48,230 nucleotides of DNA from Ionaspis alba (Eukaryota): NCBI GenBank assembly GCA_964255285.1, contig CAXUUL010000041.1:1-48230 (forward strand), read 5' to 3'. Shown piece by piece: positions 686-37,306 of the stretch. Position 1 is the stretch's first letter. The number at the start of each line of letters is the position of its first letter. Position numbers and translations under genes: made by a program. Below the pieces are notes generated by a model. It was not told the origin of the DNA, made no database searches, and saw only the letters and a list, made by a program, of their open reading frames with translations.

Positions 686-3600
686 TCAGCCTAGCTTGCC
701 CTTGCCCTTCTCTTCTCCAACACACAACCACCACCACTCTCCCACCATCAAGCCCCTCCTCTTGCCCCTCCAACCGTCTTCGTTCTCCACATTCACTACA
801 GTCCACTTCCCTACCCCAGCTTTCACAATCCAGCCCATAATCTCCTGCACCTCCCACACTTCCAAGCTCGGCGCCACACACTTCTCAACCTCGAGTGCAC
901 TGACCCCTGGTCTAAGCATCACAACCGTCAACACAGCTGCAAGCGCCATGTTCCACAGCAGAGGGAGGAGATCGCCATTGATATCGATCCAGGCCGGGTA
1001 GCGATCAAGCATCCCTCTCGCATCCACATCCACATCCATATCACTGCCCGACGCGGAAGAAGCACGCGTCCGATCAGGGACAGGCAGCGTCGTCGGCAAC
1101 ATCGAAGGCGGTGCCGGCAACGGAAGTAGCGGATTCCCTTCGACATACGTATCCGTAGGAAAAACCTCCACCGCAAACCGCAAGCGAGATTTATCCATGA
1201 ATCGCGTCTTATACCCACTCTCCATCAGGCCAAAAGGATTATTCGGGATATCCACACCCTTGAGCTTGATCCTGCCCGTCGCAGAAAGATTCATCACAGC
1301 CAAGACGTCCCCATCCACAGCATGGTAACTGAAGAGCGCTTTCCCTTGCTCGCGGAATGCGGCATCCAGCTCGGACTTGTAAGCTGCGGCGCGCTGGTAC
1401 TGACTGACTCCGAGGTTCTTCCGCAGGCGCGAGAGAAAGTGCTCGGAGATGTCGTAGTTGCGGCCTGGAAGAAGCCGGCCTTTGTTTTCTTGCATGAGTA
1501 CTTTCGCTTGTAGGAGATCGCGGACGGCGGTTTCGATGGTGGAGTCGTCGAAGACGGAGAGTTTAGCACGCGCGAAAGTGGGGGAGTAGGTTGACTCTGG
1601 AGTGATGACATTGGAGCGGACCCAGGATTTGGCGACATCGAGCTTGGTGGTTGGTGGTGGTTGGGATCGGTGGGGAACGGGGATAACATAGGGATCACGG
1701 TGGAGGATGCTGTGGCGTTTGGGGATTGTGGTGATGCCGTTGAGTTCGAAGAAGTCTTGCATGTCGCGATCATTGGTTGGTCGGAGCTCGAAGAGGTCGT
1801 CCAGTTTGTCTCTGGTTGCAGGGAGATCCGGAATGGAACTCTTCGGAGCATCGATATTCTTGAAAGTCCATTCCATGAGCCACTTCCAGTCGTAATCTTC
1901 GAGGTGGTCGTAATCTAGCGGGGGGACGGATCCATCTTCGTAGGCTTGTGCAAACATTTCCTGGAAATCGGCTTGCATCTTGTCGATTATGAGTCGATAT
2001 TTCTGGAGGATCCACGCCCAGCGTCGGTGGATCAATCGCTCGGACCAGCGAGGCTCGAATATTCGGGCAAGAAGCACCCAATCAATGTTCTGCTCGACTC
2101 CACCGGTCAGCGTCCGCACTATGATGACAGCAACTAATATTTGTCGGTCTCCATCTGGGCCGATTTCTTTGGAGAGCTGCGGTCCTCGAAACTTGGGTCG
2201 CTTAACCCTTTCGACGTCTATCTCCTCGACGATTGATGCAGGTGTGGATGATGGTTTCTCAAGTAAAGACGTAAGACGTCGAGTCTTGAGAATAGGTGCT
2301 TTCGGTTTCGTTGGTATAATTTTGGGAGGAGGTAGTGCTCTTTGAGTTTCTTGCGTGCCACTACTCTTGCTTACTCGAAGGACGACTTCATCTTCTTCAT
2401 AGGTTCTAAGGTCTTTCTCGAGATCGATTGTCCGGACAGCATCCTCTGCAACTTCATGTTCTCCAGGGAAATTGTGATTAACGAAACGAAGTTCTTGTTT
2501 TCCTCCAACTTCTGGAGGCATATTCTCGAGTTCCCAAGAGAGAACGTTCTGAATTTCGCGGCCAATTTCATGGCCTGGTATCTCGAACCACTGGCTTGGC
2601 TTTCCTCGGACAGGAACAGACATTATATCGTCCAGATTTTGAGGCATCACAAATTTCTTTTCAGGCTTTTTCAATACTAAAGCAAGACTTGCTGTTGGCC
2701 CAAAGCCCCAAAATTCCGTGGAGAATGTTCCGGTGTGATCGTGGAAGATTTGCTCCGGCTCCACAAAGCTCGAGATTTGCTGCCTTCGTCTCTCGACTCC
2801 TGCCTGTGTCCTGGGCCGCCGAGTAAATGGCTGACCACTCCCTGGATCTCGGTCCATTCGGTCTCCATTACCTGGGTCAATCAATCGATCCAGGGTCGGG
2901 TCTAGCCAGCTTCCTTGTCCTACTATTTCCTCTGGTTCTGGGGATGTCGAGGGAGTTCGATCAAAGTTGCTATGTAGACCAAGCGTCTCCATAAATTGTA
3001 ACCGTGGTCTAGTTGCAGAGCTGGTACCAGATCCTGCTAACTCCCTCGACAGCTGTTTCATTCTCTCAGTGAGACTTGCGGGTTCGTGACCTCGATGGAT
3101 TGCGGCATAGTCCACGCGAGGTTTGGTTCTCAGAGTGCTCCGTCTGATGATGGGCACTTTCCTCAAAGGAATTCTTGCCGAAGAAGGGATCTGTGGCCCG
3201 GTTGCCTGTGTGTTGAGTTTCATCAGATGGCCTGGTACGTGTCCTGTTCTAGTCGTTGTACCCGTTAGTCCTGGCAGGCGTGACAAGGGTCCTCCCAGAC
3301 GCGCAAGACGCTGAACTCGGGGTCGATGAATGGTATCTTCTGGTTTAGTTCCACCAGGGAGCAAAAATTCGACCTTGCCTGCTCTCTCTGATGGTAATAT
3401 TATAGCATTATGTTTGTAACCTGCAATCTCAAAGTCGGGCTCCCCAAGCTCCTCTTCAGCTTCATGGAGTCTTCGAAGACGTTTCATTGTCTGGACCCCT
3501 GGAATAATCTCAGGTTCAATTACTTGCCGACGGCTCCGGTATGGGTCGGCGTGGGATCTGTCTTCATTAGACAATCGCGCACGGTGGGCTCTCATTGCAT

Positions 3601-6600
3601 TTTCATGAACGTAATGAAGATCAACGGTCCCCTCCTCTACCTGTAGTCGGTTGACATACTGCTTGTCTGTAGCAGACTTGTAGTTCCAGCTCAGCTCTGG
3701 CGATACTTCTGCCTTTTCAGGGATATAGGAGCGAGGATCGCACTCTATCATCCTCCTCTGGCATTCTCGGACTCTGGGATCATTACCATCCACATCAGGT
3801 AGCGTGATAATGGTTCCAATATGCGGTACTCCGATCTTTGTCTTGAAGGTGAATTTGAGGAGTCGAAGCTTGCCGATGTCGACAAGATATTTCTGCGCCG
3901 CTCTGATTGTTCTTTGGTCAGGCTTGCCAGCTCCTGTCCGCCTCTGCCATATTGTGGTAAAAGGATACCAAAGTTCCTTGTCTCCTGGAAATACTCCATC
4001 ACATTTCTCCACAATCTCCAAGATGATTGTCCTTCGTAAAAGGGCAATGGAGCCCCCAGTGGGGGTGATCTTGTTCACCTTCGGAGCTTTAGTACGTTTC
4101 GACGTAATAGTGGAAGTCTCAAGACCATTAGCCTCAGAAGCTGCATGATCATTGACCAGAGCTGAAGAGTTGTTCGATATGTTCATAGAAGTGACCTGGA
4201 TTCCAGGCTCTGTAGGAGCTATCATAGTCTCCTGTACTATTCCGTCCGATCGATCTTTTCTCGATTCCAACCTTAGGTCAGTCTGCGTTGCAGGAAGCCC
4301 GTTGAGCTCCGTCTCGTACGATGGAGTAACATCTTCGTCCAATCTGGGCAGAACGGTCTTATTACCATTTGCAGGAGGTCCGTTGGTTTCTTCAGATGAT
4401 TTTCCACGATCAATGGCCACTGCTTCCCCATCCACGAATTCCATAACCGTGTCAGTCACGTCCGGTCCGTCAGAAGAGGGCTTCGCAGTAGAAGCGACTG
4501 GAGAAGAGGAGGAGTTATGCGGGTGAGCAGGAGTACTATTTCGAGGACTACGCCCACCCGAAGCCTCCGATACTGGTCGATTAATTTCCTCAAGCACGCT
4601 CTTGGCAACTCTCGGCTTCTTCCTGGGCCTGCCCATAGCTGCATACGGAGGAATATCCCTTGAGGCATTTCCCATTGCAAGAAATGTCGCATTTCCGTCT
4701 ACGCTGATGTCCATTCTATCGTCGACGGCCAGTGCCACGGTCGAGAGGGCGTCTAATTCTGTCAACGAGTGCTGGTTCGGTCCGCTCGAATCAGGTTTCT
4801 TGGAGACCTGCTGATTCTGAGGTCGTGAAGCAGGTGGAAGCCGAATCTCCCGAATGCCACGGGTTCGCCTTGAATCTTCCTCTGTCTCGGATAAGGATGG
4901 CCTTCGAGGACCCATGTTAATGACATCAGAGGAAAGTGGCCGTTTCCTCTTCAGCTCTTTGCCTGCCGCAGAAGTATATGGTACATACGGAACACCCGAA
5001 GATAAAGAGAGATCAGAGCGAGCTCTGTAAGCAGGTGTTGGAGTGGTATCGATTAGTGGCTGACCTTGAGGTAAGACAGACTTTGCATGAGTAACTTGAG
5101 CCGCTTGTTCAGTATCCTGAGCCTTCAACTTTGATGCAGTCTCGGAGATAGTCCGCGATGTTTGCACATTCCTCGGCGTGGTTCGAGTCGCGGATACAGC
5201 AGTCACTCTGTCAGACGAAAAGGCTCCTGCCAGGGATACTGCATCCAGTTCTACTTTGAACCAGTCAAGCTGATGCAGACCTGGAAGCTTAAAAATGGCA
5301 ATTCTACTCCTCCTTGGGCGTCCTCGAGCATGCGGGATCTTGTAATGACCCAATTCCCCGATAAAGACACCATTTGATGGTCTGCGAATAGCTGCTGCTT
5401 GAGCACTGTGACTCGAGTACGGCTTGGCGGATCCGATTTCAGCACTAACTCTAGATTCAACGCCTTCGGTTATTTCAGGACCAAGTGTTATTGACCTCGC
5501 TGCCGCGGACGACGGATAGTCCTGTTTCAAATATGACCGACTGTGCGCAGCGACGGAAGGGAAGTACGGTGGATTCGATCCGTTCTTGCGTTGGCGCTTT
5601 GAAAGAGGCTCCGTCGCCAATAGAGCTTCAACGTCTGCGTTTCGTTTTCGTGGCTTCCGGTGGCCACCCGCCAGCTGTAGCAAGAATTGCGTCTGCTCGA
5701 CTACGGTACCGAAGGCATCAAGTGTAGCTCCTCCAGCTACTAACTCTCGAGCAGGTTCGGGCGAGATGAGAGAGGCTGAATTGAGTGGCAAAGTCGGACT
5801 TGAAAGCTGCTCTCTAGCCTTTGCGGTTTTCCTGATAGTCCGCCCTGAAGAGGTCTTGGGCTTGTCATTGATCCTGAGAGGGATCTTTTCTGCTAGCTGG
5901 GAACAAGCGATAGTGTGCGCAGCAATCGATGGAAAGTATCCTAGTGCAGACTGTGGTGTGACTAGGCGCGCCTTTCTTCCAGCTCGTACTTTTGAGTCAG
6001 GCTGTGTGTTACGTGGAGCTCTCTTTGGTGTCGCTCGAGTAGTCACAAAGCTTGAGGTATCGGCAGCAACATTTTTCTGCCGGGGTCTTCCAGCTTGTCG
6101 GGAACCAGGAGCTGGGTATACTGCAAATGTGTGTGCGGCGACGGACGGAAGATAGCGACTCCTCTGCGTTTCATTGAAGAAAACACGAATCGGTGAGACT
6201 GAAACGTCTTTAAGAGCTCTTCTACCGGTTCGTTTTCGAGGAACTTTCAACGCCACTACATCCGCTTCCAACTTCTTTTGGGCTGCGGCTGCTGCTAAGA
6301 CGTCTCTTCTTGCTTCATCCACATCTTGCCCAGTAGCGGCTCGTCTCGCGGTTTCTTGCTCGATCTTCTTTGTTTCGTATTCTTTTGCCCTCATCTGTGA
6401 CTTCTTGATCGACACGAGTTGTTCTGGTGTCAACTCGTCGGCGTCCTTTGGAAGGCCTTCCTTTGGGTATTTGCGTGGTCGTCCTCGAGGTTCCTTTCTT
6501 ATTCGCTGCTTCTCTGGCACGAGCCGAGAGGTCTCAGCATCGTTCTCTTCCAAATTCTCCGAACTCTTCTCCGGCTTGCTTGACGGCTTTCCGGTAGTCT

Positions 6601-8890
6601 TCTGGCGAGGTCTACCCGATGCAGGGCGTTCGGAAAATCTGTGGGTTGGCTGGCCCAGGCGAATGTCTACAATCATTAGCGATATCCATGTCTATCAGGC
6701 ATAATTTTGGCGTACCATATGTGCCATCTCGAAGCTTGATGGGTATAGGGTCATGGAGTGTGAGGCGAAAGGGCTCAAACCGAGCTGCTTGGACACATTC
6801 CGCGAGTGTAGCATCGTTGTCTCGACCTTGGAAAAGCGATTGATCAAGCTTTGGAAATCCATACTCATCCAGATCAGGAACAGCCTCGGCAGCGAGCTTA
6901 GACACTTCCTTCGCATTGTTATCGTGCTTCATAGTCTCCACCGCTTCCCAAGATGCTTCACCACTAGCGACTTTGGTTTTGAAGTTCTGATAGCTGTAGT
7001 GCACATAATGAGCGATCTTACCAGTTAGGGTTGTATCTCTTATTATAGCGTAGTGGCGAAGATGGAGAGGTTGTGAGATCTGCCACAAGTCGACTAGGCG
7101 CGTGAGTTGATGTTCGAGTGGTCGATTGAAAAAGTTGCCAACCAGCTGGTCTTTGATACCCTGGAAGTCGTGTCAGTCATAGAAGCAATTATGCGCTGAT
7201 TGATCTGAAATACCTGGATGCTTATGCCATTGGTACCTGATGCATGAATGATATCGTACAACATGTTCACAAGTGGCCGATCCGAACTCCATTGTGGGAC
7301 ATCTATCTGCGTAACGTCGAGGTCCTCGACGTTCTCGTCATCTGCCACCAAAACCTTTAAAGAATCATCTGGCTGATAGTCCTCGTCAGCATCTCCTTCA
7401 GCATCGTTATCGAAGTCCTCATCTTGGCCAACTGGGGTATTTTGCTGCATGTAATCTCTAGTCAATGCAAAGAAAGTAGCCCAGTCCTTCTCCTTGGGTT
7501 CACGAACGAGTTTGACGCATCGATACGGTTTACCACTGAGCCGAGGAATGCTTCCGGCGACTCTGACTCGTTGCACAAAGCCCAGGAACTCCCATCTTCG
7601 TACAGCCTTTGCGAGATTATGAGAAGGACGTGCTTGTCGCCAAACTCCCTAGGTATGGCATCAGCACAAATGGTTCATTTTTCGACTCGGCCATTCGAAG
7701 CATACAAGCTTTCTTTTCAGATCATCCCAAGTCATGATCTTCATGTCTCGAAGAATTCCGAACATTTCCCGAGTCTTTGGCTCTACCTCGAGCAGCCTAC
7801 ACTGATTTTGAGATGGCTGCAAAGAGTCTCCATTCTCCACACTTGTACCAGTACCAACCATCTCCTGCTGAAGCTTTCTTCTTTGATTTTCAGTAATGCC
7901 GGCAAACCTCTTAAGAATGAGAAGACTAGTTTTGAGTAGCCCGAGCCGGATAGGTCGTTTTTCAATGTAGCCCTTGTCGTGTAAAGACTGCGTCCGGCCG
8001 GGCACAGAGCGCTTATCTTGCCCACTAATCCGAACAAGATCTGGCTGCATGATACCCTGCTCTCGGTGTGCGGCGATGATTGAAAGACAGGTGAATTCCA
8101 TGTCTGCAATTTTCTCTAGGTCTGGGCCATGTCCTGCTGCGGCGAGCCACATGCGCTCCCTTGATGTGAAAATTCTCAGCGGAGACTTGCCAGATGATTT
8201 AGTGTTGAAATTAGAACGTGGCAATTGCGGAACGGAAGTCTGAGTCTGAGACTGGGCTTGAGGCAGACCGGCTCCGCGTATCCGACCCTGAGCGGAGTCC
8301 GATGCGACGGTATCGGCATTTTCTCCACAAGTTGCGCCAGAGAGTTCGGCCACTCTCAGCTTTTCGTTGTAATCCTCTACTTCCTTGAGGCTCATGCCAT
8401 TGCCTAATCCATCTCGTCCGACCCAGATCTCCGGATGAGCTGTCAGCCATCTCCAGACTTGTTCCTGGAACAATCTGTCGATAGTCTGTTTCTCCTCGAC
8501 GTGGAAGAACTTATCATCATCTTCAGCATCCGGTGACTGCTCATGGTGTTGCTCGGCATAAAATCGGTCAATGTAGAGCAAAACATCGGATACTCGTGCG
8601 CCTGAGGAGACGTAAGTTAAATTTGTCGCAAACAGTTATGATAAATCCAAGCTGAGCTCTTTCCATGCTACTAAAATAATGCTTTCCGCAAGAAGCAATA
8701 AAAACTAAACATACAATTTGGTGAACTGTAAGAAACATAACATGGTGGGTGGATAGACGCTCTAGCGACAGGCATGAGAGAAACCATCAAGACGACAAAT
8801 TTGAGTGCATGACGGAAACTTACCAGCCTCACCCCCAAGCGCAATTTCGTCGAGCAAAAACACGATCAGATCATCTAAACTGCCTCCCAT
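686..8890 (-). CDS. TFC3: RNA polymerase III transcription factor TFIIIC B-block-binding subunit (Tfc3/Sfc3-like), ~2607 aa, 5 exons
   Basis: Exons 8890-8824, 8601-7706, 7648-7214, 7160-6716, 6666-686 with GT-AG introns splice into one frame (7824 nt). N-terminus MGGSLDDLIVFLLDEIALGG; B-block winged-helix-like segment LSIIAAHREQGIMQPDLVRISGQDKRSVPGRTQSL; several AT-hook-like GRP motifs; Sfc3-like C-terminus ending GEWWWL. Confidence 0.9.
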
Positions 8891-8946
8891 CACTCATCTT
8901 CCACTTGACGGTACAATATCTCCACAAAGGAGAAAAATCAGCCCAT
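8871..8946 (-). promoter_or_regulatory. Two upstream ATGs/uORFs in the putative TFC3 leader
   Basis: ATG GGC TGA at 8946-8938, and an out-of-frame ATG at 8897 (MSDGRQFR*, ending 8871) overlapping the main ATG at 8890. They function only if the transcript starts upstream of them. Confidence 0.4.
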
Positions 8947-8960
8947 GAGCGCTGTTGCTG

Positions 8961-8972
8961 AGGTTCGAACCT
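8961..8972. promoter_or_regulatory. Isolated B-box (ETC-like TFIIIC site), palindrome AGGTTCGAACCT
   Basis: Matches the Pol III B-box consensus GWTCRANNC on both strands; no tRNA cloverleaf or clear A-box seen around it; about 70 bp upstream of the TFC3 ATG. Confidence 0.6.
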
Positions 8973-9279
8973 TGTGACAGTAGTGACAATTGAGTCAGAT
9001 TCTGCTTTGGCGATTTTGGTCGTGGTGGGGCACGAGCGAATGAAAAAAATTGGACAAATGGCGCAGATGTCGAGTGGGGCCCCTGGGTAAGGTTTGGACG
9101 GCGAAAGAAGAACGGAGCTAAGCTGAAAAGGGACGGTTGCGACAAGCACAAAACGGCCATCGAAGACGAATTGGATACGGAGCTACCAAATACTGCATTT
9201 CATGACTAAAGCAACGCTATAAACCGAGTGGGTATCTGCCAACGCCTGTTCTATGCTCCCTCGTCATGCAGCAGTTCTT

Positions 9280-10872
9280 TCATCTAAAATGTCTTCCCCT
9301 TCTCGGGCTCCGTTTCCCCCAATCCGATCGACTTGCAGCCCTCAAGTCATCAACGCTCAGCACGTCTACTCCCTCCTCCATGAGGATCTTCCAAACACTA
9401 TTCCGCAACCCGATTGGCCAGTCAGGCAAGTCCCAATACCGAACCTTGAGGCCTCTTCGGTGTGCTCCACGAATCTGTCCACGAAGCAATGCTTTTTGGT
9501 GAGCAGAGAGACTATATCTCCACATACGTCCAACTGTATCACTGAAGGAAGCGCTGGCATAATAGGAGTTGGATTCGTTGTAGGTGTTACGAGGTGAGAG
9601 TCGCGCATCGGCTGCCGGTCTCCGGAAATCTCGCGGACTCAGGTAACGCGTATCCTTAATGGCTTTTGAGTAGTCTTTGTGGTATGATCTAAGTTCTCCA
9701 GGCTTGTAGAGATGTTTGTCTTCTCCCCATGGATAGATGCCTAGTGGTTTATCATCTTCCATGAACGCCTTTCCGTCAAGATTTTTCTTCCCATCGTTTA
9801 TCTTGCTGCTCTTGGGTCCAGAACTTCTTTCCACCCACTCCTCATCTTCCCACATCGTCTCCAATGGCGCATCGTAGAATATATCATGATAAGGATTTGT
9901 TTGGTCCGATGCAATACGATCGAAAGGAGCATCACCAGTTGCTACCACAACAACAGGGCCAGACACGACGTGTGTGCCGTTCCAATGGCTAAGGTAACCC
10001 CGAGACCTGAGAGGCTCCAGAGCTGAGAAGAGATATGGCCATAATGTTGGACCAGAGGTCTTGAATTCGACTAGGAGGGTAAGAGGCTGCATTAGATTGG
10101 TGTCGAAGACTCCATTGCGGGGACTGTCTTGAGTAGTATGATGTGAAGTTATAGGATTCTGCTTCGAAAGGATATCCATTACCGGGTTGATGTAGAGGGA
10201 TTTGAGGGTGCGATTCCGTGTAAGACTCCCGGCGCTATGACCGACATATAACTCTCCATTGTATAACCATATGTCAGCCTCGACACTTATGCATCCAGCG
10301 CTTATGGCCGAGTACAACGGTACGCGACGCCAATAGTCATTATGCGAATGACAACGGACGGGTCTAATATCTCGAGTAAAGTCCGTAGGCCAGGAATCGA
10401 GACCTTCCCCAGTTTGACTGATCTGACCCCATGAATCGATAACGTCGTGGATGTCGTCGGGGTAAAGTGCTTCTATTATGCCACCGGTCAACGCAAAGAT
10501 TTGTACGACTCCGCTAGAGAGATGTCAGCCTCAATCAAACGAGCAAAATTTTGCAATTCGACTGTACAGGACAAGAAGAGTGCCCAGTCCTAACATCAAG
10601 CACCACCGTAGGCGCTTTCGCCTGCTGGACCTGCTTGTTCTACATCTGAAACACTGATCATCATCCCTTTCTGAGTATGTTCTTCTGCACTTCCTTTCGT
10701 CATATCTGAGGAAAGGTGGGAGTAGTCGCCAGGCGATAGAATTTCGATGCGTCGTGGTATGAAAAGGCTCAGGAATCGAGTACTCGAATTCGGAGTACTG
10801 ATGCAGTAGGGAATCATCCAGTAAGAATGGTGTCGCCGGATCGCTGCTGTCGGTAGAAATTCGGAAGGCCAT
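9280..10872 (-). CDS. AIM6: Aim6-like PLC-like phosphodiesterase-fold protein with N-terminal membrane anchor, ~512 aa, 2 exons
   Basis: Exons 10872-10568 and 10513-9280 (intron GTACAG...CTGAC...TAG). Motifs CHSHNDY, GCISVEADIW, LYVGH, AHRRGLKVRYWDLP and GVDVLSVDDL are typical of the family; hydrophobic segment WCLMLGLGTLLVLGVVQIFAL. Confidence 0.85.
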
Positions 10873-11794: not shown

Positions 11795-12969
11795 ATGCCG
11801 CACAAACACCGGCGAGATCCAACCCAAAACAAAGACTTGTAAGATCCCCGAATGCAACATCGCAAGTCGGCGTCTTTCCATCAATCTGACAACCACTACT
11901 CTCGCAGGTACAATCTCCCACCCACAACTCTTGCGAAACCCCTTCCCGTCACCAAATCATCCAAAGCACCTCCCGCTACCAAATCGTCCAAACCCGGAGA
12001 AAGCTCTCAGAACCGCAGCCTCAAACGCAAGCGTCCAGCGAAAGATGCCTCCACAGACGACACCCCCCGCGNNNNNNNNNNNNNNNNNNNNNNNNNNNNN
12101 NNNNNNNNNNNNNNNNNNNNNNNNNNNNNNNNNNNNNNNNNNNNNNNNNNNNNNNNNNNNNNNNNNNNNNNAGCCTCAAACGCAAGCGTCCAGCGAAAGA
12201 TGCCTCCACAGACGACACCCCCCGCGCCTTTGCCCGCCTCCTAGCCTTCACCAAGGGCGTCAAACCCCGCTCTGGTCTCGACGACGGCGTCCGCCCCACC
12301 AAAAAGCAAAAGAAAAAGCAACAGCAAAAGCCCAGCTCGGAACCCCTTCCCGACATTACCAACAAATCCACAATCCCGAAAATCGCCCCTGGCGAACACA
12401 TTTCCGAATATGGCGCCCGTGTCGATGCTCTCCTGCCTGTGTCGGGGTTGATCAACAAGTCCGGAAAGGGAGGCAAGGATCTACCGGGCGTGAAGGTTAG
12501 GCAAACGAAGTTGGAAAGGAAGATGCAGAGGATGCAGGCCGAGTGGAGGGAGGCTGATAAGAAGAGGAAGGAGAGGTTACTGGCTGAGAAGGAGGAGGCG
12601 GAGGATGGGGAGGAGAACATTTGGGCGGGAAGGAAGCGGGGTGTGAAGAAGGGGAAGGGGAGGGGAAAGGAGGAGAGTGATGATGAGGATCCTTGGGCGG
12701 TGGTTGGTCGGAATAGGAATGCTGTGTCAGGGAAGCCAGCGATAGGGGGCTTGGTGGGATTGCATGATGTGGTACAGGCACCGCCGCAGTTCGCGAAGGT
12801 CCCACGAGAGAAGTTCAAGGTTAGGGACGGGGCGGGTGTGGATGTAGTGAATGTCCCTGGGGCAGCGGGAAGTTTACGGAGGAGAGAGGAGCTAGGAGCA
12901 GCAAGGAAGGCGGTTGTGGAGGGCTATAAGGCGATGATGAAGGAACGGAGGGGTCTGCAGGAAACGTAA
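11795..12969 (+). CDS. Conserved basic coiled-coil protein (UPF0653/CCDC137-like, probably nucleolar), ~316 aa after collapsing the false gap
   Basis: Exon 1 11795-11838 (MPHKHRRDPTQNKD), intron GTAAGA...CTGAC...CAG, exon 2 from 11908. Removing the gap and one 55-nt duplicate gives one frame: DDTPRAFARL...IAPGEHISEYGARVD...DVVQAPP...LRRREELGAARKAVVEGYKAMM. Confidence 0.75.
12017..12226. other. Scaffold gap (12072-12171) flanked by an exact 55-nt duplication; likely assembly artefact
   Basis: 12017-12071 is identical to 12172-12226; merging them restores the reading frame. Confidence 0.9.
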
Positions 12970-15147: not shown

Positions 15148-17868
15148 TCAATCGTTCTCCTCATCATCTGCCTCGAGCTGATCCGCGAGCCAATTCATGA
15201 GCCCTCGTTCATTCTGGTTGGGGTTCATAGCCCACTTGTCGAGTTGTGACTCAAACGTCACCTCCTCATCGTAAAGCTTAACAAGAGATGACTGGAGCTC
15301 TTCAAGGCGCTGCCTGTAGATCGGACGGAGATGGCTGGCAATGATTCGAAATTGCTCAAGCCCCAAAGCACCCCAGAACTCTTCTGGATCATCGTAGCTG
15401 CTAAGTCTCTTGACCTCGTCTAAGTCGGATTCGTCGACCTCATCCAAGTCAATGAACGTGGGGTAGCCACAGCCAGATCTTCGGATGTATGGCTTGAACT
15501 CATTGTGCTCCCAGTCCAGAAGAGCAGTAATATTGCCATGTGCATCAACCAAAAGATTGCTGGCAGAAATATCGTCGTGAAGTAACAACGTCGTAGGATC
15601 ATCGTCAGGGCTTGGAAAATTGATGGTAGGGATAGCGTTGCGTAGTGCCCGAACAGCGGGGAGACTTGTATCATCCCAATGAAGTTGTGGGCCGCTGCTC
15701 CTCGCATCCTTCCTCTCATTCTCATCAAGCCCACTCAAGATGGCTTCTTTGTCTGATTTGAGCAATTCCAATGCTTCCTCCTGCTCTGGTGCGAGTTTGC
15801 CCCGATTGAGGAGCAAGTAGACTGGATCGAACATTTCCTTGAGCAGGACATCAAGGAAGGCTTCATAATACTCATTAATGCATCTGAAGGGTCCACGAGG
15901 CACATCGTAAGTATGTCTTCGATTCCAGTAGAAGCTCGACTCCACAGTACGACCAATGAAAAATTCTAGATGTGTAGTCGTCCAGCGAAGATAAAGCCCG
16001 CCGATCAGAGTATCCGTCATGCGCGACAACTCGTTCTGCCAATTCGCCACTTGCTGTGTAATCTGCATGTGCGTGGCGTTGTCGAGGTCAAGCCACCTTC
16101 GGATAAGAGGTTCTCCACCCATCTTCTCCATAAGCATCCACTCGAGACCAAGCTTATTATTGGCCGATGAATCGTATGCGTATATGATCGGCACAGGAAT
16201 GCTGGTGAAGTGTCTGACGAGCTCAGTAGTAGCGACGTCGCTCTCCGTCTTGTAGTATGGATAAATTGGAATGGGCACTCTCATAATGAACTCGTGCTTG
16301 GTTCCCCGCCTGCTCTTGATTCTGATGTTGTAGACGCTATGAAAGCCCCCGGTTGTGATCAAGGTGACTTTGCAAGTTCGTGAACGGAAGCTAGAGTCTA
16401 GGAGCTTTAGGACTGGCTTGATCGTCCTTCTGACGAGATTGATATCTGGTTCTACTCTCCAGGTATCCTCTGGAGGCTTGAACACGAAGTGCTTGTGTTT
16501 GATCCAGTGCTTGAATCTCTCAGCTGTCCATGGTTGAGGACCACTGTCTCCCATGCGAAGTGGGTAAGTTGGTCTTAAAACCTTCCGGAATGTGGTGTCA
16601 GATGGATTGAAATCTTCTTGGTCTGGTGTCAAAGGTGGTGTCTGGTAAGGTGCCTTGTCTTCGAGATCGTCGGCTTCGGATGAGCTGGTAGGGCTAGATG
16701 GTGGACTGTCATGTGTTGGAGAGACAAAGGCTTGGTGTTCGTCTGAAATGTGACGCAACTCCATGGCTGCTGGGGACCGGTGACTATACGCAATATTAGC
16801 ATTATCAAAATGATATCATGCAGAGCGATTGAACTTACTCGGAGCAATCTGAGCCGTGCTGGTGTGTTTCCTCATGGTGCAGACCAGGAGCGTTAGACTC
16901 GTTACGAGAGGTCTCAGAAACATCCATCTCCACGTCTTTGAGTGGCTTGCTGAATGGTTCCATGTCAGTGCATGAGCTCAGCTTAATCTCGAGAGCCACC
17001 ACATACCCAATGCCGTCTTCATCAGACACACAAGTTAGACCGTGCCTCGGCAGCGCATGTACTTCCGGTATTTGCTCCAATGCATCTGAAAACACTTCGT
17101 CGCCCATCGTCGTGTCTGAGGGGTAAGAACAATCTGAGGAGGTGGACGTTGTATCACTTGAACTCCCTGATGACGACGATGATGTTTCGCTGACGCTTCG
17201 CAGGGTCGGGATGAACGAGGTGGAAAGCTTCGACTTAGTCAATCTCAAGATCGGTTGTGTTTCGTGAATGATTTGCGGAGTTTGTGTTGATGAGCAGGCT
17301 GCCTCAGCCGTGGCCTTCTTTGAGGTCGACGATGTTCCGTTGACACTTTGTGGAGTGTGGACCGATGAGCTAGCTGTCCCCAGTGCGGCCACTTTCGAGG
17401 TCGACGATGCTTCGCCGGTAGTTTGAGTAGTCTGACTCGATGAGCTGGCAGGATTGGACAAAGCTACTTCCGAAGCTGACGATGTTTCGCTAGCACTTTC
17501 GGGTTTCTGAGTTGGTGAGCTGGCTGTCCTGGGCTTAGCCACCTTCAGAATGAATGAGTCCTTGTCTTCTGCGACGAGGTCAATGTCGATCGGGTCAGGC
17601 AGAGTTCTAGCAGCATGTCAGTCCCTACCAAGTGGATTATCATGGATACTGCTTACTTCTGTGCCTTGATGTAACGTAGGATGTGCTTCCGCGATATCTT
17701 ACGGGCACGACGGCGACGACTTGCTTCCAATGGGATGTTCACCTCATCAGCGTCTTGAGCTGGCAGACAAAGGTTGCTTGTTTCTGGAAATGGCGTAGAC
17801 ATGCCACATTCGGGTTCTCTGCGCTCATCGTCTACACTTTCGACCTGCGCCTGAACTTCAGCCATCAT
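15148..17868 (-). CDS. Aminoglycoside phosphotransferase (APH)/choline-kinase-like protein with long Ser/Thr-rich N-terminal extension, ~871 aa, 3 exons
   Basis: Exons 17868-17657, 17606-16839, 16783-15148 join in frame via GTAAGC/GTAAGT donors. Kinase-like motifs GGFHSVY, IPVPIIYAYD, EWMLMEKMGG, Brenner-type HDDISASNLLVD and LLDWE. Confidence 0.8.
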
Positions 17869-22064: not shown

Positions 22065-25000
22065 TCACCAAGCTGCGACATCATGATCAAACCTGGTCAA
22101 CTCTTTCCCCGCATCCTCAACATCCTTCTTCGCCTTCATGCGCATATAGAAAATTGGACAGTCCTTACTCGAGCAAATAACCTCACAATGCATGCTCCCT
22201 TGACAGCGCTGACATTGTGTCCACAGCCTCCCAAACCTGACCTCCAAATCCGAGACTTTGTGCAGCGACTTCTGATACAGCTCTCCCATCCGAGGTCGAC
22301 AATTCTCGCACACTGCGCCTGCAGACTCTTCCTTACCAACTAGTGGCTTTTTGCACCCCAAGCAGGTCTGCGTCTTCTTCGTGAACTTCATCAAACCACC
22401 CAGCGTTGGGGCGGCAATGCTGACCGAGCGGGTGTGCTCACCTGTCAACAACTGGCCCGACTTCTTGACTCCCAAGATGGGATCGAAGATTCTGCCCAGC
22501 GGCTTAGCAAGCTGATTTTCGAGGTAGTACTTTGTGTCAATAGGGATGTTGTTCTCGAGGACGAAGATGGGATCTTCCGAGCGCTCGTAATTTTTGGCAC
22601 CGCCGGCTCCTTTGACAATGACATAGGCTACTCGATCACCAAGAGTTGGGGCGGAACCTGCATCGCGCTTTTTCATGCGCTCGGCGAGCTCGACGTGCGC
22701 TTGTTTAGCGGTGTAGTCGGACTTGGAGAGGGCTTTTGTGATGACGAGTTTGGACATGTCGATTTTGTTCTGCAGGAGGTCGGAGATGGTGTCTTTAACA
22801 TAGCTGGTCCTTTGGGTTAGCTTGGTACATTGTAGTCGTCCTGGAGAGGGAACTCAATGACTTACTCTTGTGCTGCTTCGAGATCCTGGTCGATCAGGAT
22901 CTTACGCAGAACGGTCTCGATGACTGTTTGCACCATACGACAATTGTCTCTCCGCACAGTTTCAATGCCTTTGGTGTCCATCTTGTCGTACTTATCCGGA
23001 TTTGTCCAGTAGAGACCTGCATATCGCTTCTTGTTGATCAGCAAGTATGGAAAGTAAACCTTCTCGAACTCCAGCTTAATTGGTTTGATGAACTTGGAAG
23101 AGACATAATTTGCTGCTCCTTCCCCTAACTTCATAGCTTCAGCCAGATCTTTGGTTCCGAACTTGACCATGACAGAATCGGTGTCTCCGTAAATAACTTC
23201 CGCATCGTGACTGTACCCATTGGCTATTGTGTACTTTGCTTCCACTTCAGCTTTAGTCTTCTCTATCATTTGTCGCCCGTAGGACGTTGTACTACTTGCA
23301 ATAGCCAGGCAAGGCAGTTTCCCAACGGTGGCACCAGTGATACCGTACACACTATTGGCACTGATCTTTAGGGCCAATTGCCGTCCGTTCAGAACTGCCT
23401 TTCTGAAAGGATCGGTCTCAACTGCCAGCTCCTTCTTAGCCCGTTTTCGGGCTCCAAGAAGCTCTTCCAAAATCTTAGACAACAGACCCTTCCGTATCTT
23501 AGCAGTGCAGAACATGTCCCCGTTAGGAGTGACAAGGTAGTCCTCATCCTTGACCAGCCCAAGTTTCTCGACGCTGGTTTTATTGAGCAAAGTAGTATAG
23601 CAGAGATTGTGGGCTTGTATAATACTCGGGTACAGAGATGCAAAATCGAGAGTAGCTACCGGCTCTTCGTAAAAGCCCCTATTGGGCTCAATGACTGTAG
23701 CGCCTTCATACTGTTCATCGGGTCCGTCATTGTGGAGATTGGGAATCACAAGTGATTCTGAGAGTGCTTTGCGAAACAGCTGACTAATGAACTTGACCTG
23801 TTGGCCCCTGGCGAGCAGGTAATTGAAAGGCACTCCCGTAACTCTTGCCATTTCCGTATAGTTGACTAGACACATCAACTTGTCCATCAATCGTTGTGGC
23901 AAGTAAGCATCTTTGAGACAATATACAGCTAGTCGGCGCCTAGATTCTGGGGTGCCGTTGAATAGCTCTGTGATCATCGTATGATGTACATCTTCTTTCT
24001 GCTCTCCTAAGAAGTGTGCACAAACAGAATTGAGGGTATAGCTTCGAAGCTGATGATCTCTTTGTACAAGCTGTAGCAGATCCAACTGCAATCGTCCATT
24101 TGTATTGGTAGCTTTGGTATCCCGGTTACCCATTTGCTTGCTAGAGAAGTTGGTGTCCTTCGCATGTGACTGAATGCTCTTCAATCTCGTCCAATAAGGG
24201 AATTTTGTGCACTTCAAGTGTCTTGCACGGTCGAGCAGGTACGGAAAATCGAAATTGCAAATGTTGTACCCAATTATGACATCAGGATCAACCTTGTCTA
24301 GGAAGTCTCTCCATGCCATTAGCATTTTCTCTTCTGCATCGAACTCAAGGATCTGGGTATTGACGATCAGACTGCAGGTATCGAGGCAGAACACATTCCG
24401 GATGAAAGGTTTTGTGTCTCCATATCGTGTGACGACGTTAGCAATCTGAATGACAGGATCTTGGTTGGCTTCGGGAAAGACTCCTTTACGTCCTGCACAT
24501 TCGATATCGAACGAGAGGATCCTCAATGGCGCCATTTTTGCCCACTCTCCATCGTTAGGGTGCGCTATCAAGTCTTTGTAGTGCACGTGTGCCTCTATTT
24601 GACAGTTGGAGTGCCGATCCCGATATGGTATGACATGGTACTTCATAGGAGGCACCTCAACCCACGACATCCCAGAAATCTTGAGTTCTTAGCATATGCC
24701 AGACCATCTTTCGACAGCGTACTTACCCCTGTGTCTATCATAAACCGTAGCACATACTGAATACTGTCAAAGGTCAGAATACCACCCTCGACTCCCTTCC
24801 AAAGCCCCTTCCAGTTCGCATTGCCAGACTCTACCGTGGTCCGAAGCTTGTTGATGTGCTTGGGATCAGAGACTGTGATCTTCAGGTAAGGATTCTTTTG
24901 ATTGCCCTGAAATCCGAACAGATTCTCTCGCATGACCATTTGTACTGAATGAATAGTCTGCTGGAATTGGTTCGATCCACCTAGGTTGGTCTCAAGGTAT

Positions 25001-25558
25001 GTCCTGAATGCATCACAGTCCTTTTGTGCAAAACCTATTGGCGCCGCAACGTAGAGGTAGTGCATAAAGCCAGTGACATGTAGAAGTACCGAATGGCCGG
25101 TCTGATGACGAATAGCAATTAGAAGAGGATTCCATGACTCAAGAGGATCGTGTGCCTACTTCAGTGACACCAAACAGTTTGACTGTAGTCTTGCCTCCAT
25201 GTAGAGTCCCATCCTCCGCCTCGATCTGCTGGAAGCACAAGCTATCTCTTTTCTCGTCGAATTCGTCTAGAGATGGCCGTTCCCATTGCTGGTCTTTCTC
25301 CGAATTCTTCTGCTTCAGGCCATGGATATCTTGAGTCAACTTCTCTAGCACTTCCTCTTCAAATTGACTCTTGGGCTGACTCGAACCAAGCTTTCCCTTG
25401 GTACCATTTTGCTTGTGAAAGCCTGCAGCAGGAGATGATCCAAGGTCAAGCTTGCGCCGTTTGGAAGCGCTTGGTGAGGGAAGAAGGTTGGAATTTCGAT
25501 GCATCTTTGTAGCATCTCCAAGAACCCGCTTCTGGGGTTGGAGGACTGCGGCGGACAT
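22065..25558 (-). CDS. POL3: DNA polymerase delta catalytic subunit, ~1108 aa, 4 exons
   Basis: Exons 25558-25160, 25101-24727, 24679-22866, 22803-22065. Exonuclease SFDIEC; polymerase motifs [24 protein letters not shown]-terminal CysA/CysB (CLGC...CENC, CQRC...C...C). Confidence 0.98.
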
Positions 25559-25612
25559 CGTGATGGGAGGACAGAGTTGCGCAACTACCTGGTCATGGTA
25601 AAGTCTTGTTTA

Positions 25613-25680: not shown

Positions 25681-26189
25681 CGGTAAGTTCCGTCATGTCC
25701 GTCCTGCTCTATCTCCGAGCTGTCTCGACACTAACCCTAGCCTTATGAAAAGACACAAAACATCTACCGAAACCCTTCGACTCCGATACACTTCTAGAAC
25801 ATCTGAGCCAAGGCTATGATTAGGCCTCTTCGACGCAATGCCTCCAATTTAGCAGCACTTCAGACAAACTAGATTGCCGATTTCCAGCGCTGAGCATGAC
25901 CTACAATGGTCCAAGCCTTCAGGTGGCTTTGCCTATAGTTAGGGCAGCATGCAATTGAGCACTAGAGGCAGAGATACAACCTAAGAGTGGTTCTCTAGGT
26001 GACCGATGTTCTATATACAGACATCATGTACTACGATTTTCCAATAACCAAGATTTCTCCAAACTTTTGGTCCTCCTTATTATACATCAGCAATTCCCGT
26101 TCCTGTTTTGCCAAGTTCCAATCTCAATCCAGAGTCTCTCGGTCTCGAACCACCATGGCTCTATCTAGCAAGTATATGCATCAATCGGA

Positions 26190-27227
26190 TCACTCAGGCT
26201 TGCTTCTGCTCTTAGGTCTCGCAGCCCCACTCTTGACTCTCCTTGCCTCAGGGCGGTTGATGTGGTGCGCAGGAATCCAGCTCTCATCGTACGCCTTTGC
26301 TCCACTGGTGACAGCTGGACCATCAGCGCCAACGACAGAAGCTTGGTCGGCAGGGTCGACTTTCTTGGATCCGCCCGAAGATCGCTTGGCTCGTTCACCA
26401 CCTTTGCCTCCCCGGGCTTTTTGTGGAAAGAGAGTGACGATCCAGGTCAAGTAAGAGAAGTAGCAGATTCCGAGGAAGAGGGCTAGAAGGAAGAGGTAGA
26501 GGAATATGCTAGATTTTGTTAGCTATACCAATTCCTCCTGAATCGCAACTTGCAGAGACTCAGTGGGGGAAGCTCAAGCCGGGAATACTCGTTCGATCGA
26601 AAATCTACCTCTAAAAACAAGGCTGCTAGGCAGGGGGTGGGAAGAAATAAAACTCACAGCTGAATATCAAACAAACTCGCATCCGGCTCCACAATGCTGA
26701 CAGTCTCATTAAAAGCCTGGACAGTGTAAAGAGCACCTTTCTCGGCCGTCAACACCGCAATCAAATTGAGCCTCAGATCCTGCGGGTGTAGCTCAGTCGT
26801 GAAGCTGTAACTGACACTCTCTTTCTGGCCGGCCGGAATCTGCACATTGTATCTAGTGCTCGTCATGTTACGCACGATTATGTCTGTAGCGCCTTTCGTC
26901 TTAGGATCGGGACCCCATAGGGAACCACCAATGAAAGCGACGGTGACAGGTGCGGGCTCGTCATTGGTAATTGAGAGAAGAGCTTGGGTGGGATGGCCAT
27001 TGACGAGCTTGACGCCGAAGACTTCGGCTTGCGGGAACGAGGTGGAGACCTTGACGGCGAGGTTGGGGGAAGTCTTCGTGTCGACTTCTGGGGCTGCTAC
27101 AGGAGACTGTACTCTTTAGCAGGGATTGGAGGGGGTTTCAGGGATGTGATCTTCGTACCTCTGCTGCGATAGCGGAGAGAGCTCGCAAGGATAGCAAGGC
27201 TAGGGTTGAGAAACGTAGGACTGCCAT
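26190..27227 (-). CDS. IRC22: Irc22/translocon-associated protein alpha-like ER membrane protein, ~278 aa, 3 exons
   Basis: Exons 27227-27159 (signal peptide MAVLRFSTLALLSLRALSAIAAE), 27106-26658 (FPQAEVFGVKLVNG...AFNETVSIVEP), 26508-26190 (TM segment IFLYLFLLALFLGICYFSY, then YDESWIPAHH). Confidence 0.85.
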
Positions 27228-32006: not shown

Positions 32007-34114
32007 TCACCCACTGAACAATGGCGCCGCCATCGCCTGCCTAGCCGCCATTTCAGTCATCTCAGCAAAAAGTGGGTCCTGCAACCCCTCCAACCACAGA
32101 TCACAACCGATAATATTATACGCATCAGGAATTACATTAGCCTCCAATGCCAGCTGCTGGGGCGGTTGTCTCGCGCTCATAATCTCCCTTGCGGCGCCTT
32201 TGATCCGCATCATTACCGAGTCGGCGACTGCCCAGACTTCCCTTACGGCCTTGAGCGCGCCCACGCCCAAGGCTAGCCGGTCCTTGAAGATGGATTTCTG
32301 TGCTGGTGATTTTGTGATTACATGTGCTGAAAGGTGAACAACTGCCCCGAGTGTGATCATGCAGGTGAAGAACGGCGTGTGCTTGATCATGGGGCATGGC
32401 AGCGTGACGAGCGCAGCGATCTTGTCGGCCGCTGCAATGGCTTTTGCGGTGTGGACTGCGTAGCGACCGGCCGGTACAGCGATTCTTCGTGGTGGGGTGC
32501 AGGACGTTGTGTCCTGGACTTGGGTGAAAATTAGATCAGAACGAGGACGATGGAGGAAGATCGTCGCACTAGTAGTGGAAGTCTATGATTAGCTAGTGTT
32601 TCTGTGAATGAAGACGGAGGACATACGCGCTGATAATCATATGCGCTTGAAACATCATCTCATCTATTCGGCCATCTGCGTCTATGGGATCCTTTTTGCT
32701 TTCTGGAAGATGCAACACCCAGTTGTTGAGAGCTGTGTCGAGGTTGACAACAATCTCTGAGCTGTCTGGGCAGAACGATTCGTTCAGGGCCAGGAGTTTG
32801 CCCAGTTCCCGGATGGCCATGATTCGATAAGTGTAGGAGGAGAACTGGACCTCGTTCTCCGAGAATTCGCCAACTTCTATCTCATCCAATGTTTGTGGCT
32901 CACCCCGCTGCATCGTGATGGTCAGCTAGCTGAGGCGCACATCAGAGAAGTCTATCACTCACAGGAACATTACCAGCACGGTACACTCCTTCCTCGCAGG
33001 GAAGGCCCACATCTGTAGGCACCGAGTGCAATCGAAAAGAAGTTTTCATATGCACGGCAGCAAACATGCCATCCATGACATAAAGTTCCCACCAGGTACG
33101 TCGCCAGCTCTCTGCAAGCACGGGAACCCCAAAGCTCCTCTCCGCAGCAAAGGACCGTCTGTTCATGCCGAGATCCAGCGCTAGGTCGATGGCTCGATCG
33201 AGAGTGTGGGTTGCCTGCTCAGCCATATCCATAGAATGTTGCGCAATGGCGAGGAGGAGCAATGCTTGTACTGTGTGGCCATCTCTCTGCGCTCGGTCGG
33301 AAAAGAGCGATGCGGCGACAGCGGGCCACTGCATATCTTTGCTCTCCAGGCTCGAGTAACAGGCTCCGATATAGTCCATGACAGCAGCGACGGAGTCAGG
33401 CACTCGGGTGGCTAGCTTCCAATGGTTTTGGGGCACGAGTATAGGGTGTCCATCGTGGAAATTTTGGTAATAGAGCTCGCGAACCTTGGAGACAGCATGG
33501 CTCGGTTCGATGTAAGGCGCACTGGGTGTGTATTCACCACCATTGATGGACTCAATTGGAGAATCACCATTAAGAGTCGTCTGGTTCGAAAGCGATATAT
33601 AGTGGTTAGGATTATTGACTATGACTGTTCCTTGATTGTTGTTGTTGAGCCCCGTCGCCATGCCATCGTACTGTTGTGGCTGGCCCGTGAGGTCCTGACC
33701 AAAGTTGTCGTTGGTCAAGAATGCCAACTCATCGTTGACCAGTCCGCCGCCATCACCGATATTGTGAATGGGGACTGTCGAGTTTTGAGCAAAGGATTTG
33801 TCATTTTCCACCGAGTTCTCTTTCTTCTTCGACGGTCGATATCCTCGGCGCGAACGGATGTACTGGCAATCCTGCCGGGCGGTGCGACACCTCCCACAGG
33901 TCGGTTGCACTCCGTCACATTTGACGTGCCTTTCACGACAAGCTAGGCAAGCCAACTGGACAGCAGGTCTTTCTGCTCCGTCATCCTCGAAATCCCTTTT
34001 GTTGCTAGAGGTGGTGCTTGGGTTCGACATTGTGGTGCTGGCCGGAGAAGGTTTGGAGGAGGGAGGAGTTGGCGACATGGCTGGCGGTTTTGGAGAACCT
34101 GCATGAAGCAACAT
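32007..34114 (-). CDS. Zn(II)2Cys6 fungal transcription factor with fungal-specific TF domain, ~664 aa, 3 exons
   Basis: CLACRERHVKCDGVQPTCGRCRTARQDC; ESWRRTWWELY; exons 34114-32963, 32907-32627, 32568-32007. The start may instead be the ATG at 34078. Confidence 0.92.
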
Positions 34115-36401
34115 CTTGTCCTACTCTCGTCAGTATGCAACAGAGAAAAACCAGATCTCTGGTCTATACACAAGCCTACCCTCACAAATTGGAATCTCCT
34201 TGTCTCAGATGAGGTCCCTACTTCTCGAGAAACCCCTCTACTAGCTGAATGCTTATTGACGCCTCCCGCCTCAGTAGTGGAGCGCTCAAACCCTGGTCCT
34301 GAATATCTTAAGACTGTCGATCTCGACAACTCTACGAAGAAGAAACATATTCAAGATGGAAAATCGGCAACAGTGACATACAGCCTCTTGCTAGTCAATA
34401 GTAGGGCTTATGGTATACACTAGCAGCATATGCACGTCAACCACATCCCTCAAACCGGCGTTCTCGGGCTTCTTCACGAAGGTCCCCGAAATGGAGCCAA
34501 GTCCAACAAGTCATCGTTGCTAGAATCTTATCTCGGGAGTGCCACAACGGCTGACGGACAGCTGCTTCTGCATCTGCATGCTGAGGACTATGTCAGAGGC
34601 CGAGAATTTGTTGCAGCTACATCATTATTTGCTTTTTACAGCTGTCGAGTTCTTGAACTTCATTCCACCTTCCGATTCATTTCTGGCTTTTGGTTGGCAC
34701 TTCGTTCCACCTGCATCAGCAGTGCTATCCCTCCACACACCCACGGGGCTACAGGTCTGCCATGTTGATCTGAATACCTGAATATCCATGTATCATGCTG
34801 AATTGATTATCTTCCACCCTTGCTTGGCTATGGGGTTTGCCCGCAGAATCATAAACTCGCTGGTAATGCACGATTTGGAGGCATCATAAGAGATCTCTTG
34901 CTTCCCCTAATACCGCAGAAGCTCGGGTTTTGTGGACCTTTTGAACACCGCAACGATGATTGAGATCACAAGGGGTAAGCCCTCCTTTTTGAGGACCTCT
35001 GTTGTGGAATTGAACTACGTTCATTACCAGTGACGCAGCGAGTCTAAGTGTGGCAACCATGCAGTCCAAATGCCGTGGCACGGCGAGCTGCGATCCTTCG
35101 TGGTTTGCCTCGGGCTCATCATATTCATGCGATGAAACCCAGAGATCCCTTCTCTCTTTAGACGTGATTGGAGTCTCGTTGATCATCCAGAACCCCACGT
35201 ACTTTTGCAGTCCTTTTAGTCTTTATCTTCATTCGAATTATTCCTAGCTGCTTCTCTTTACACAGTCAACTGATACCAAGTACAGATTGGTTCGTTTGCA
35301 ATGATTATTCTTCCTGTCTGTTCTACCTCCTGCCATTTTGGTTTGCGTACTTCCAAAGTGGTCCTTCCCAAGACCCCGCTTCATTTTTGCTGTAACTGCA
35401 TCCAGTACTGTCTCTGAGATAGTGTTCAGAGGCTCATGACAAGATTGATAATCTCAGAGCCAGTTGGACCAAATTCGTACCGTTGTATGCTGCAGTTAGA
35501 CAGATCATTCACGATGGTTCTTTATGTCCACGAGTTCTCCGATCAATGCTTTCTGCTCTCTTCCCCGAACAGCATCCACCTCATCATCGTTTCTACTGCC
35601 TGTGTCTTCACCCTCAATCCGGTGATGTCAAAGGGAGTATGCAAAGCCGCCTACAACGAAGTCAAGGTCTGTTTGGTGTGGGCTATATAACAAGATGCCA
35701 GAGCGAAAGTATCGAGGAGCTGATTGTGTGCGATAACGGTCAAACCATTGAATGCAGCGCAGAATACAAGAACGGACGGGCAGTTAAAGGGCATAATAGC
35801 TCCTTGCAGGGTTGAGAACGCAGGGACAATACCATCGGTGGAATGCATCACCCATACCAAGAAAGTTTGCAGTGAGATTGTGTCTATTGGAACGAGCTAT
35901 AATGGATATCGTGCATGTCATGGGCGGTAGCGACAGAGACCGCTTTTCACAATTCCTTCCAGGTCACCCACACCCGACCGCCTTTCTCGTCTGTATTCAG
36001 ACTCTACCACGCCAAGCTCCCACCAAAGTGACACTGTCTAATCTTCACAAGTATACCATGAAGAAAATGCTTGCTGATAAGCACCCAGCTGCAATCCACG
36101 CGGTTTCAAAGGCCGCTGTTTCGGGATGTGGACCGGTGCTGGTAGTCTTCGCAAGATCACCGTAGCATGGATTCATAACGGCACCAAATGTGGTTACGCA
36201 AGCCCTAATAGTCGAGGTTGCTGTCACATGACGCCTTCTCTGACACTCGGACCTTGTCATTTTTTCCAATTACCAAGAACGGATCCGTCTCGTCTTGTTT
36301 GCACCAACCAGAAGAGTCATATCACTGTTGGAAGCCCTGATATTAGTAACGAGTAGATGTCCTTGTCTTAGCCATTTGGCACTAATCCAAGCCTTGGCTA
36401 T

Positions 36402-37306
36402 CTACTCCGACTTCCACTGCTCAAACTCCTCCTTTAGGTGGATCTTGAGCTTTTCAAATTTCGACCCGAAGTTCTTTCCACATCTCCAGCAGACCATGTC
36501 ATCCCTCAGATATCCACCATGAGAGCGTTCCCGCCTGATATCGTCCCTGGCGAGTGGAAATTCTTCCAGTCTGACTAGGAATGGTGTAGCGAAGCTATTG
36601 TAGTGCTTCTTGTGCCTGAGGCACACCGACTGGCGGTCCACGGACATGACATGGACATGCAAATGGTTCATGGAAGGCCCCGAGTGTATGCCTACCAGTA
36701 TCTCTTTCTCCCAGTCTCTACCCGCCGGTAATGTATCTGGCGGTGGATCTGCATCCATGGCCTCAGTCCGAATCTGCTCTGTAGCAGAATTCTTACCATA
36801 GCGGCGGCGCAGCTCACTCGCCGCCATCGCCTTGACTTTCGCCGCTTCATATTGGACTGAGGCTAAGAACTCCTTGTCTTCGAAGGCGTCGATGGGATGG
36901 AGCAGCATCTTGGTCTTATCTCGAGGTAAGATGAGAAGGTGGATGGAGGATTTGGGGTAAAGGTCATTGATAACCACAAAGTTCTCATTGTGATATATCA
37001 CTCTGGATTGTGGATACGACTCGGGAGAAGTAATGTAAGCACCCAACCCGTCCCGCCCAGGAAATGTGTATCTGCTCCGTGAATTGGCGACTGCAGGCTT
37101 GGGCGATTTAGAATTCTTAGGGGAGGTCATGAGTTCTGTGACTGCAACTCATGAGCTTCCAGTGAACAAGATTATGTATGAAGTATCCCACAAGCATTTC
37201 GGCTCTGTGAAACCCTGGAGCTCTCAGTGTCTTCAAAGGGCACTGCAGTTCCCGAAATCTCTTCTTCTGTGATGGCATCTTCAGAGGTCTCCTCTTTGCT
37301 CGCCAT
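36402..37306 (-). CDS. HNT3: Aprataxin-like HIT-family DNA deadenylase, ~284 aa, 2 exons
   Basis: DLYPKSSIHLLILPR, GIHSGPSMNHLHVHV (HIT), KKHYNSFAT, and C2HE finger CWRC...HLKEEF. Exon 1 37306-37192 joins 37141-36402 to give RNAFTELM, using a weak GTGGGA donor. Confidence 0.9.

Follow-up and report, generated by a model that had tools for sequence, protein, structure and literature searches.

The whole stretch of DNA analysed here, referred to below as the window, is 48,230 nt long. It carries an AIM6-like gene and a TFC3 gene arranged in tandem, both on the minus strand with AIM6 upstream, and the short spacer between them contains a perfect 12-bp palindrome, AGGTTCGAACCT, which reads as a B-box in both directions. 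The features located at this locus and in the rest of the window are collected in Table 1.

Table 1. Features located in the window. Negative values give the distance from the TFC3 ATG.
Feature	Position	Strand	Remarks
TFC3, remaining part of the gene	686..7648	-	putative, at least three further exons; stop codon 686-688
TFC3 exon 2	7706..8601	-	B-block-binding winged-helix domain with GQDKRSV; PF04182
Putative TFC3 intron 1	8602..8823	-	GTAAGT ... CAG, 222 nt; donor at 8823, acceptor ends 8602
TFC3 exon 1	8824..8890	-	ATG 8890-8888; encodes MGGSLDDLIVFLLDEIALGGEA and ends after the first base of the following codon
AIM6 stop to TFC3 ATG spacer	8891..9279		389 bp
Leader stretch with two upstream ATGs	8895..8946	-	upstream ATGs at 8946 (-56) and 8897 (-7)
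Pyrimidine-rich tract TGATTTTTCTCCTTTGTGGA	8921..8940	-	-50 to -31, between the palindrome and the ATG
Palindrome	8961..8972		-82 to -71
TGACTCA	8991..8997	-	-107; by motif only, as a heptamer of this sort often arises by chance
CCAAT followed by T7	9049..9053	-	-163; candidate Pol II promoter element, motif only
AIM6-like gene, large 3' exon	9280..10524	-	stop TGA 9282-9280; frame 9283-10524
APH-like kinase	15148-16815	-	Pfam
DNA polymerase delta catalytic subunit	about 22065-25609	-	Pfam
TRAP-alpha	26190-27115	-	Pfam
Zn2Cys6 transcription factor	32942-34120	-	Pfam
HIT/zf-C2HE (aprataxin-like)	36402-37148	-	Pfam
DHX29-like DEAH helicase with RWD domain	38283-42134	+	Pfam
Heme oxygenase	44685-45626	+	Pfam
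CorA-like, weak	47110-48228	+	Pfam E=1e-4, 22.2 bits, under the 27-bit cut-off

The N-terminus of the TFC3 product fits the consensus MAPSL..LID.LL.EIALCG.QGAS..DVL.FID.FY, taken from an alignment of 18 fungal Tfc3 proteins, and the putative first intron joins exon 1 in frame to the ARVSDVLLYIDRFY frame. The second exon matches the Pfam family B-block_TFIIIC (PF04182) at E=1.1e-21, and a 2001-codon frame of the same gene (689-6691) carries the C-terminal domain DUF6581, which TFC3 homologues have alongside PF04182. At E<=0.001 there were 23 homologues, several of which are named Tfc3 or tau subunit, and a search of the PDB with the family profile retrieved yeast tau138 8ffz_B at E=9.4e-17 and 9gc3_A at E of about 1e-16. 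The fungal GQDKRSV aligns with GQDPRSV of yeast tau138, that is with R139/S140, which are reported to read B-box bases in the sections of PMC11724288 that were available. Because of this alignment, the PF04182 match, the Tfc3-named homologues and the profile match to tau138, the gene is, as judged by homology, a clear TFC3/tau138/Sfc3 orthologue, predicted to encode the B-box-binding subunit with its base-reading residues kept. The orthologue is very long, as its open frames total ~2,600-2,700 codons compared with 1,160 residues in the yeast tau138 chain, and the 2001-codon exon has long low-complexity stretches ahead of DUF6581.

The closest hit to the product of the neighbouring gene is an unnamed protein with 58% identity, and the relatives bearing the name 'Altered inheritance of mitochondria protein 6' come from Lecanoromycetes (Toensbergia, Hypocenomyce) with 54% identity at E of about 1e-145. 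The nearest AIM6 relatives are Lecanoromycetes, and the host is accordingly lecanoromycete-like, without a close relative in the collections that were searched. No Pfam family matched the AIM6-like frame. The 389-bp spacer must contain the 3' UTR of AIM6, the promoter of TFC3 and the TFC3 leader. An earlier note on this DNA had placed the palindrome about 70 bp 5' of the TFC3 ATG, between that gene and the 3' end of AIM6, and this placement holds: both genes could be identified by homology, the ATG and the nearer end of the palindrome are 71 bp apart, and about 310 bp separate the palindrome from the AIM6 stop codon.

Two overlapping minus-strand frames (8871-9182 and 8894-9199) are open for 103 and 101 codons, and both span the palindrome. 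An 18-nt direct repeat with 83% identity was also seen, with one copy at the start-codon region of TFC3 (TCATCTAAACTGCCTCCC, 8871-8888) and the other at the stop-codon region of AIM6 (TCATCTAAAATGTCTTCC, 9280-9297); this is probably due to chance.

A motif scan of the spacer gave no match to a TATA box upstream of TFC3. Two other candidate elements were seen, the CCAAT followed by T7, and TGACTCA, which we take to be an AP-1/Gcn4-type heptamer. Whether the B-box is situated just upstream of the transcription start or within the leader, it lies between these candidate upstream elements and the coding region. Nearer to the gene, the upstream ATG at 8946 reads ATGGGCTGA, and that at 8897 opens an 8-codon uORF which ends just inside the main ORF and so overlaps the TFC3 ATG. 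Both would lower translation if the leader starts upstream of them.

Elsewhere the window is interrupted three times by exactly 100 N (within 12017-12226, and at 43959-44058 and 45491-45590). An exact duplicate of 55 nt flanks the first run (12017-12071 is identical to 12172-12226), which falls inside an open reading frame; at the second run the flanking duplicate is 18 nt long, and the third run has none. The N runs look like scaffold joins at which overlapping contig ends were left unmerged.

No other sequence in the window matches the palindrome, even with one mismatch tolerated. As the earlier note had stated, it reads as a B-box on both strands, and the match to GWTCRANNC (the Donze-laboratory consensus, as printed in the part of PMC4228148 that was seen) is GTTCGAACC from 8963 on the plus strand and from 8970 on the minus strand. 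A stricter motif, GGTTCGANNC, is also matched. On either strand a B-box-like 11-mer, GGTTCGAACCT, starts at the second base of the palindrome and corresponds to tRNA positions 52-62, in a numbering that agrees with the contacts described in the available portion of PMC11724288. All six invariant T-arm bases (G53, T54, T55, C56, A58 and C61) are kept on both strands. Against GGTTCGANTCC, the consensus printed in the accessible text of PMC3395662, the palindrome scores 8/10 specified positions; the T at position 62, where it mismatches this consensus, also occurs in the yeast tRNA-His gene of the tauB-DNA cryo-EM structure, according to the same portion of PMC11724288. As the site is palindromic, the central CpG supplies the invariant C56 to both strands (8966 on the plus strand, 8967 on the minus strand), and an exchange of CG for GC would therefore leave no B-box in either orientation, although the symmetry would be kept.

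No Pol III gene was detected around this B-box, in agreement with the claim of the earlier note that it has no tRNA body. ARAGORN found 0 tRNA genes in the 48230 bases, and Rfam gave 0 matches at the gathering score in the whole window. When the Rfam threshold was relaxed to E<=10 between 8600 and 9400, none of the matches overlapped the palindrome, and the only ones obtained were two sub-threshold snoRNA-like matches at 8848-8904. The best A-box-like match at 25-110 bp upstream of the B-box was 4/9 on the plus strand and 6/9 on the minus strand, which is no better than the background (the best match at 2000 random places in the window, with a mode of 6/9). Neither a repeat nor a longer inverted repeat was found around the palindrome. 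By these ARAGORN, Rfam, A-box and repeat searches a tRNA gene, a tRNA pseudogene or relic, a tRNA-derived SINE and a larger inverted repeat were rejected. Downstream of the B-box there is a T5 run at 25 nt on the minus strand, within the pyrimidine-rich tract, and a T4 run at 43 nt on the plus strand; such runs are common.

The frequency with which B-box-like sequences would arise by chance was calculated from an analytic Markov expectation for GWTCRANNC and GGTTCGANNC, and from 30 block shuffles for GGTTCGANTCC. For GWTCRANNC the window has 43 hits against 32.5 expected, and 0.26 are expected in the 389-bp spacer. The stricter GGTTCGANNC has 6 hits at 5 distinct sites, counted on both strands, where 1.45 hits are expected, and its expectation inside the spacer is 0.012. 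Sequences matching GGTTCGANTCC at >=8/10 positions number 39, against 36.3 in the shuffles, with about 0.3 expected in the spacer; when the six invariant bases are also demanded this becomes 10 hits against 5.4 +/- 2.0, and about 0.04-0.07 in the spacer (5.4 shuffle hits, or the 8 other hits, multiplied by 389 / 47930). Stricter and looser definitions of the motif thus put the probability of a chance B-box in the spacer anywhere from 0.012 to about 0.3. For a good B-box beside TFC3 it is roughly 1-7%, which is suggestive, not compelling. Three other sites in the window reach 9/10 to GGTTCGANTCC with the invariant bases kept, at 5180 and 25377 (coding) and at 26141 (3' region).

The last of these, GGTTCGAGACC (26141-26151, minus strand), is a second lone B-box-like site, and nothing else in the window matches GGTTCGANNCC in full. 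The frame continuing the TRAP-alpha gene has its stop codon (26190-26192) 38 nt before this site, and the N-terminal exon of the DNA polymerase delta gene is about 580 bp downstream of it. Both flanking genes are on the minus strand and there is no tRNA, so the tandem geometry is the same as at TFC3. On reading the two sequences, no 3' flank is shared between this site and the palindrome.

We tentatively favour an explanation in which TFIIIC binds the palindrome as an ETC-type site and so damps TFC3 transcription, blocks read-through from AIM6, or does both. Nearly as likely is that a B-box-like palindrome without a selected function happens to lie beside TFC3, whether or not it binds TFIIIC weakly. 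Palindromy in itself is ordinary, as there are 18 perfect 12-bp palindromes in the 48 kb, GWTCRANNC has an expectation of 0.26 in the spacer, and matches to GGTTCGANTCC at >=8/10 positions are no more numerous than in the shuffles. Besides the palindrome the window contains four GGTTCGANNC sites, of which three are in coding sequence, and the identity of the neighbouring gene was already known when the palindrome was singled out and the hypothesis formed. However, the strict 10-mer GGTTCGANNC is hardly to be expected within the spacer, the adjoining gene is exactly the one whose product reads the B-box, and there is a proven precedent at the gene for a sister subunit, TFC6. Chance B-box matches in the yeast genome far outnumber ETC sites. 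The part of PMC12409998 that was seen lists no more than eight ETC sites for yeast, and because these few stand against many chance matches, a B-box match alone does not guarantee TFIIIC binding.

The two remaining explanations both keep a function for the site. It could belong to a homodimeric Pol II transcription factor that is unrelated to TFIIIC and has a target that merely resembles a B-box, which would be in keeping with its place among other candidate Pol II motifs, the CCAAT and the TGACTCA, and with a symmetry that takes in one more base pair, A...T at 8961 and 8972, outside the 10-bp core of the B-box. An additional symmetric base pair is nevertheless found by chance in 1 of 4 cases, and we know of no fungal factor that recognises GGTTCGAACC. 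A heat-shock element needs a 2-bp spacing, which TTCGAA does not have, and these points make the homodimer site improbable. Heat-shock elements and Zap1-type palindromes were rejected by eye, as the half-site spacing or the sequence is wrong when compared with their consensus sequences. Less probable still is a Pol III unit, either an unrecognised small RNA gene or a decayed but still transcribed tRNA or SINE relic, from which Pol III interference would act on TFC3. The T5 and T4 runs would suit such a unit, and there is a mammalian parallel in Polr3e, which is affected through interference by a Pol III-occupied MIR in its first intron (PMC5358760, in the part available); against it stand the empty ARAGORN and Rfam results, the lack of an above-background A-box within 25-110 bp on either strand, and the lack of a repeat or inverted repeat around the palindrome.

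Under the favoured explanation, that of an ETC-type site, the tauB module (Tfc3 with Tfc6 and Tfc8) would bind the B-box in either orientation, and without an A-box neither TFIIIB nor Pol III would be positioned there. We infer that TFIIIC would occupy the palindrome, that Pol III would be absent from it and that transcription would be affected. The bound TFIIIC would sit between the candidate CCAAT and TGACTCA elements and the TFC3 ATG, where it could hinder the assembly of the Pol II pre-initiation complex or the communication between activators and the promoter. More TFIIIC would then mean less TFC3 mRNA, a negative feedback as for ETC6 and TFC6 in S. cerevisiae, and the same complex could block Pol II read-through from AIM6, which ends 310 bp upstream on the same strand. 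From this single motif match a role in autoregulation or in insulation is plausible. If real, the palindrome would add a further autoregulatory site to the known ETC type without being an element of a new kind. Should a B-box prove conserved upstream of TFC3, feedback on TFIIIC dosage through its own motif would be shown to be a general fungal strategy, and the central CpG would offer a simple mutable handle on the action of TFIIIC at Pol II promoters.

A broader and more doubtful proposal is that filamentous (lichen-forming) ascomycetes run TFIIIC feedback via TFC3 rather than TFC6, with a palindromic, orientation-independent solo B-box in the TFC3 core promoter that, occupied by TFIIIC without Pol III, would set the level of Tfc3 and end AIM6 read-through. 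If this were true, ETC-type regulation of Pol II genes would be ancient in the Ascomycota, and the target subunit would have shifted between lineages.

The openly accessible literature was searched for comparable sites. A promoter site of this kind was not found for TFC3, sfc3 or GTF3C1, the similar site near S. pombe sfc3 mentioned in the earlier note included, and searches combining sfc3 with B-box or COC returned structural and evolutionary papers only. No description of ETC sites in filamentous fungi was found within the same scope; among the papers listed for TFIIIC in Neurospora or Aspergillus, none takes up TFIIIC sites in its title or the opening of its abstract, and in PMC11413187 TFIIIC is confined to the reference list. 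The only case of TFIIIC autoregulation in the literature found was that of TFC6, in a single yeast. When GTDB contigs were scanned for relatives of Tfc3 with the N- and C-terminal alignments, 18 and 73 pattern matches were obtained, none of which was confirmed.

ETC and COC sites bind TFIIIC without TFIIIB or Pol III and act as insulators, barriers and peripheral tethers. The palindrome resembles the ETC sites of S. cerevisiae and the COC sites of S. pombe in being an intergenic B-box that has the invariant C and no Pol III gene, and in lying in the promoter of a gene for a TFIIIC subunit it corresponds to the ETC6/TFC6 type. It differs from most yeast ETC sites in its tandem gene arrangement: 6/8 of those sites lie between divergent genes, according to the part of PMC3395662 consulted, a feature that is typical of the family and not obligatory. 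The same text describes yeast ETC sites as a B-box with a 10-base 3' extension that is common to all eight and conserved in sensu stricto species; this extension may be specific to Saccharomyces.

With regard to read-through, Pol II transcripts of neighbouring genes become longer at the 5' or 3' end when the B-box of a tDNA or an ETC site is mutated (PMC4228148, Donze laboratory), and TFIIIC together with TFIIIB can roadblock Pol II (Roy et al. 2016, PMC5052057), as far as the accessible parts of the two papers describe. The palindrome likewise has the 3' end of one Pol II gene on one side and the promoter of a second on the other, whereas the roadblocks described there are mostly full tRNA genes with TFIIIB as the main obstacle, and here there is a B-box only. 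The MIR of Polr3e is similar, in the available account of it, in that an element of the Pol III machinery lies in or next to a gene for that machinery with the potential for feedback. It is however a transcribed intronic SINE that acts by interference, and at the palindrome no transcription unit is detectable.

The nearest counterpart is ETC6 itself. In S. cerevisiae this B-box in the TFC6 promoter binds TFIIIC and its mutation roughly doubles the transcript, with binding mapped to about -150 to -90 (PMC3334521, on Kleinschmidt et al. 2011, as far as that text was seen). Compared with ETC6, the gene controlled would be TFC3 instead of TFC6, the flanking genes are in tandem (AIM6 then TFC3) instead of divergent (TFC6-ESC2), the site is a perfect palindrome, and the host is a lecanoromycete-like filamentous ascomycete. 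What the two have in common is a lone B-box, at a comparable position, within the promoter of a gene that encodes a B-box-contacting subunit of tauB.
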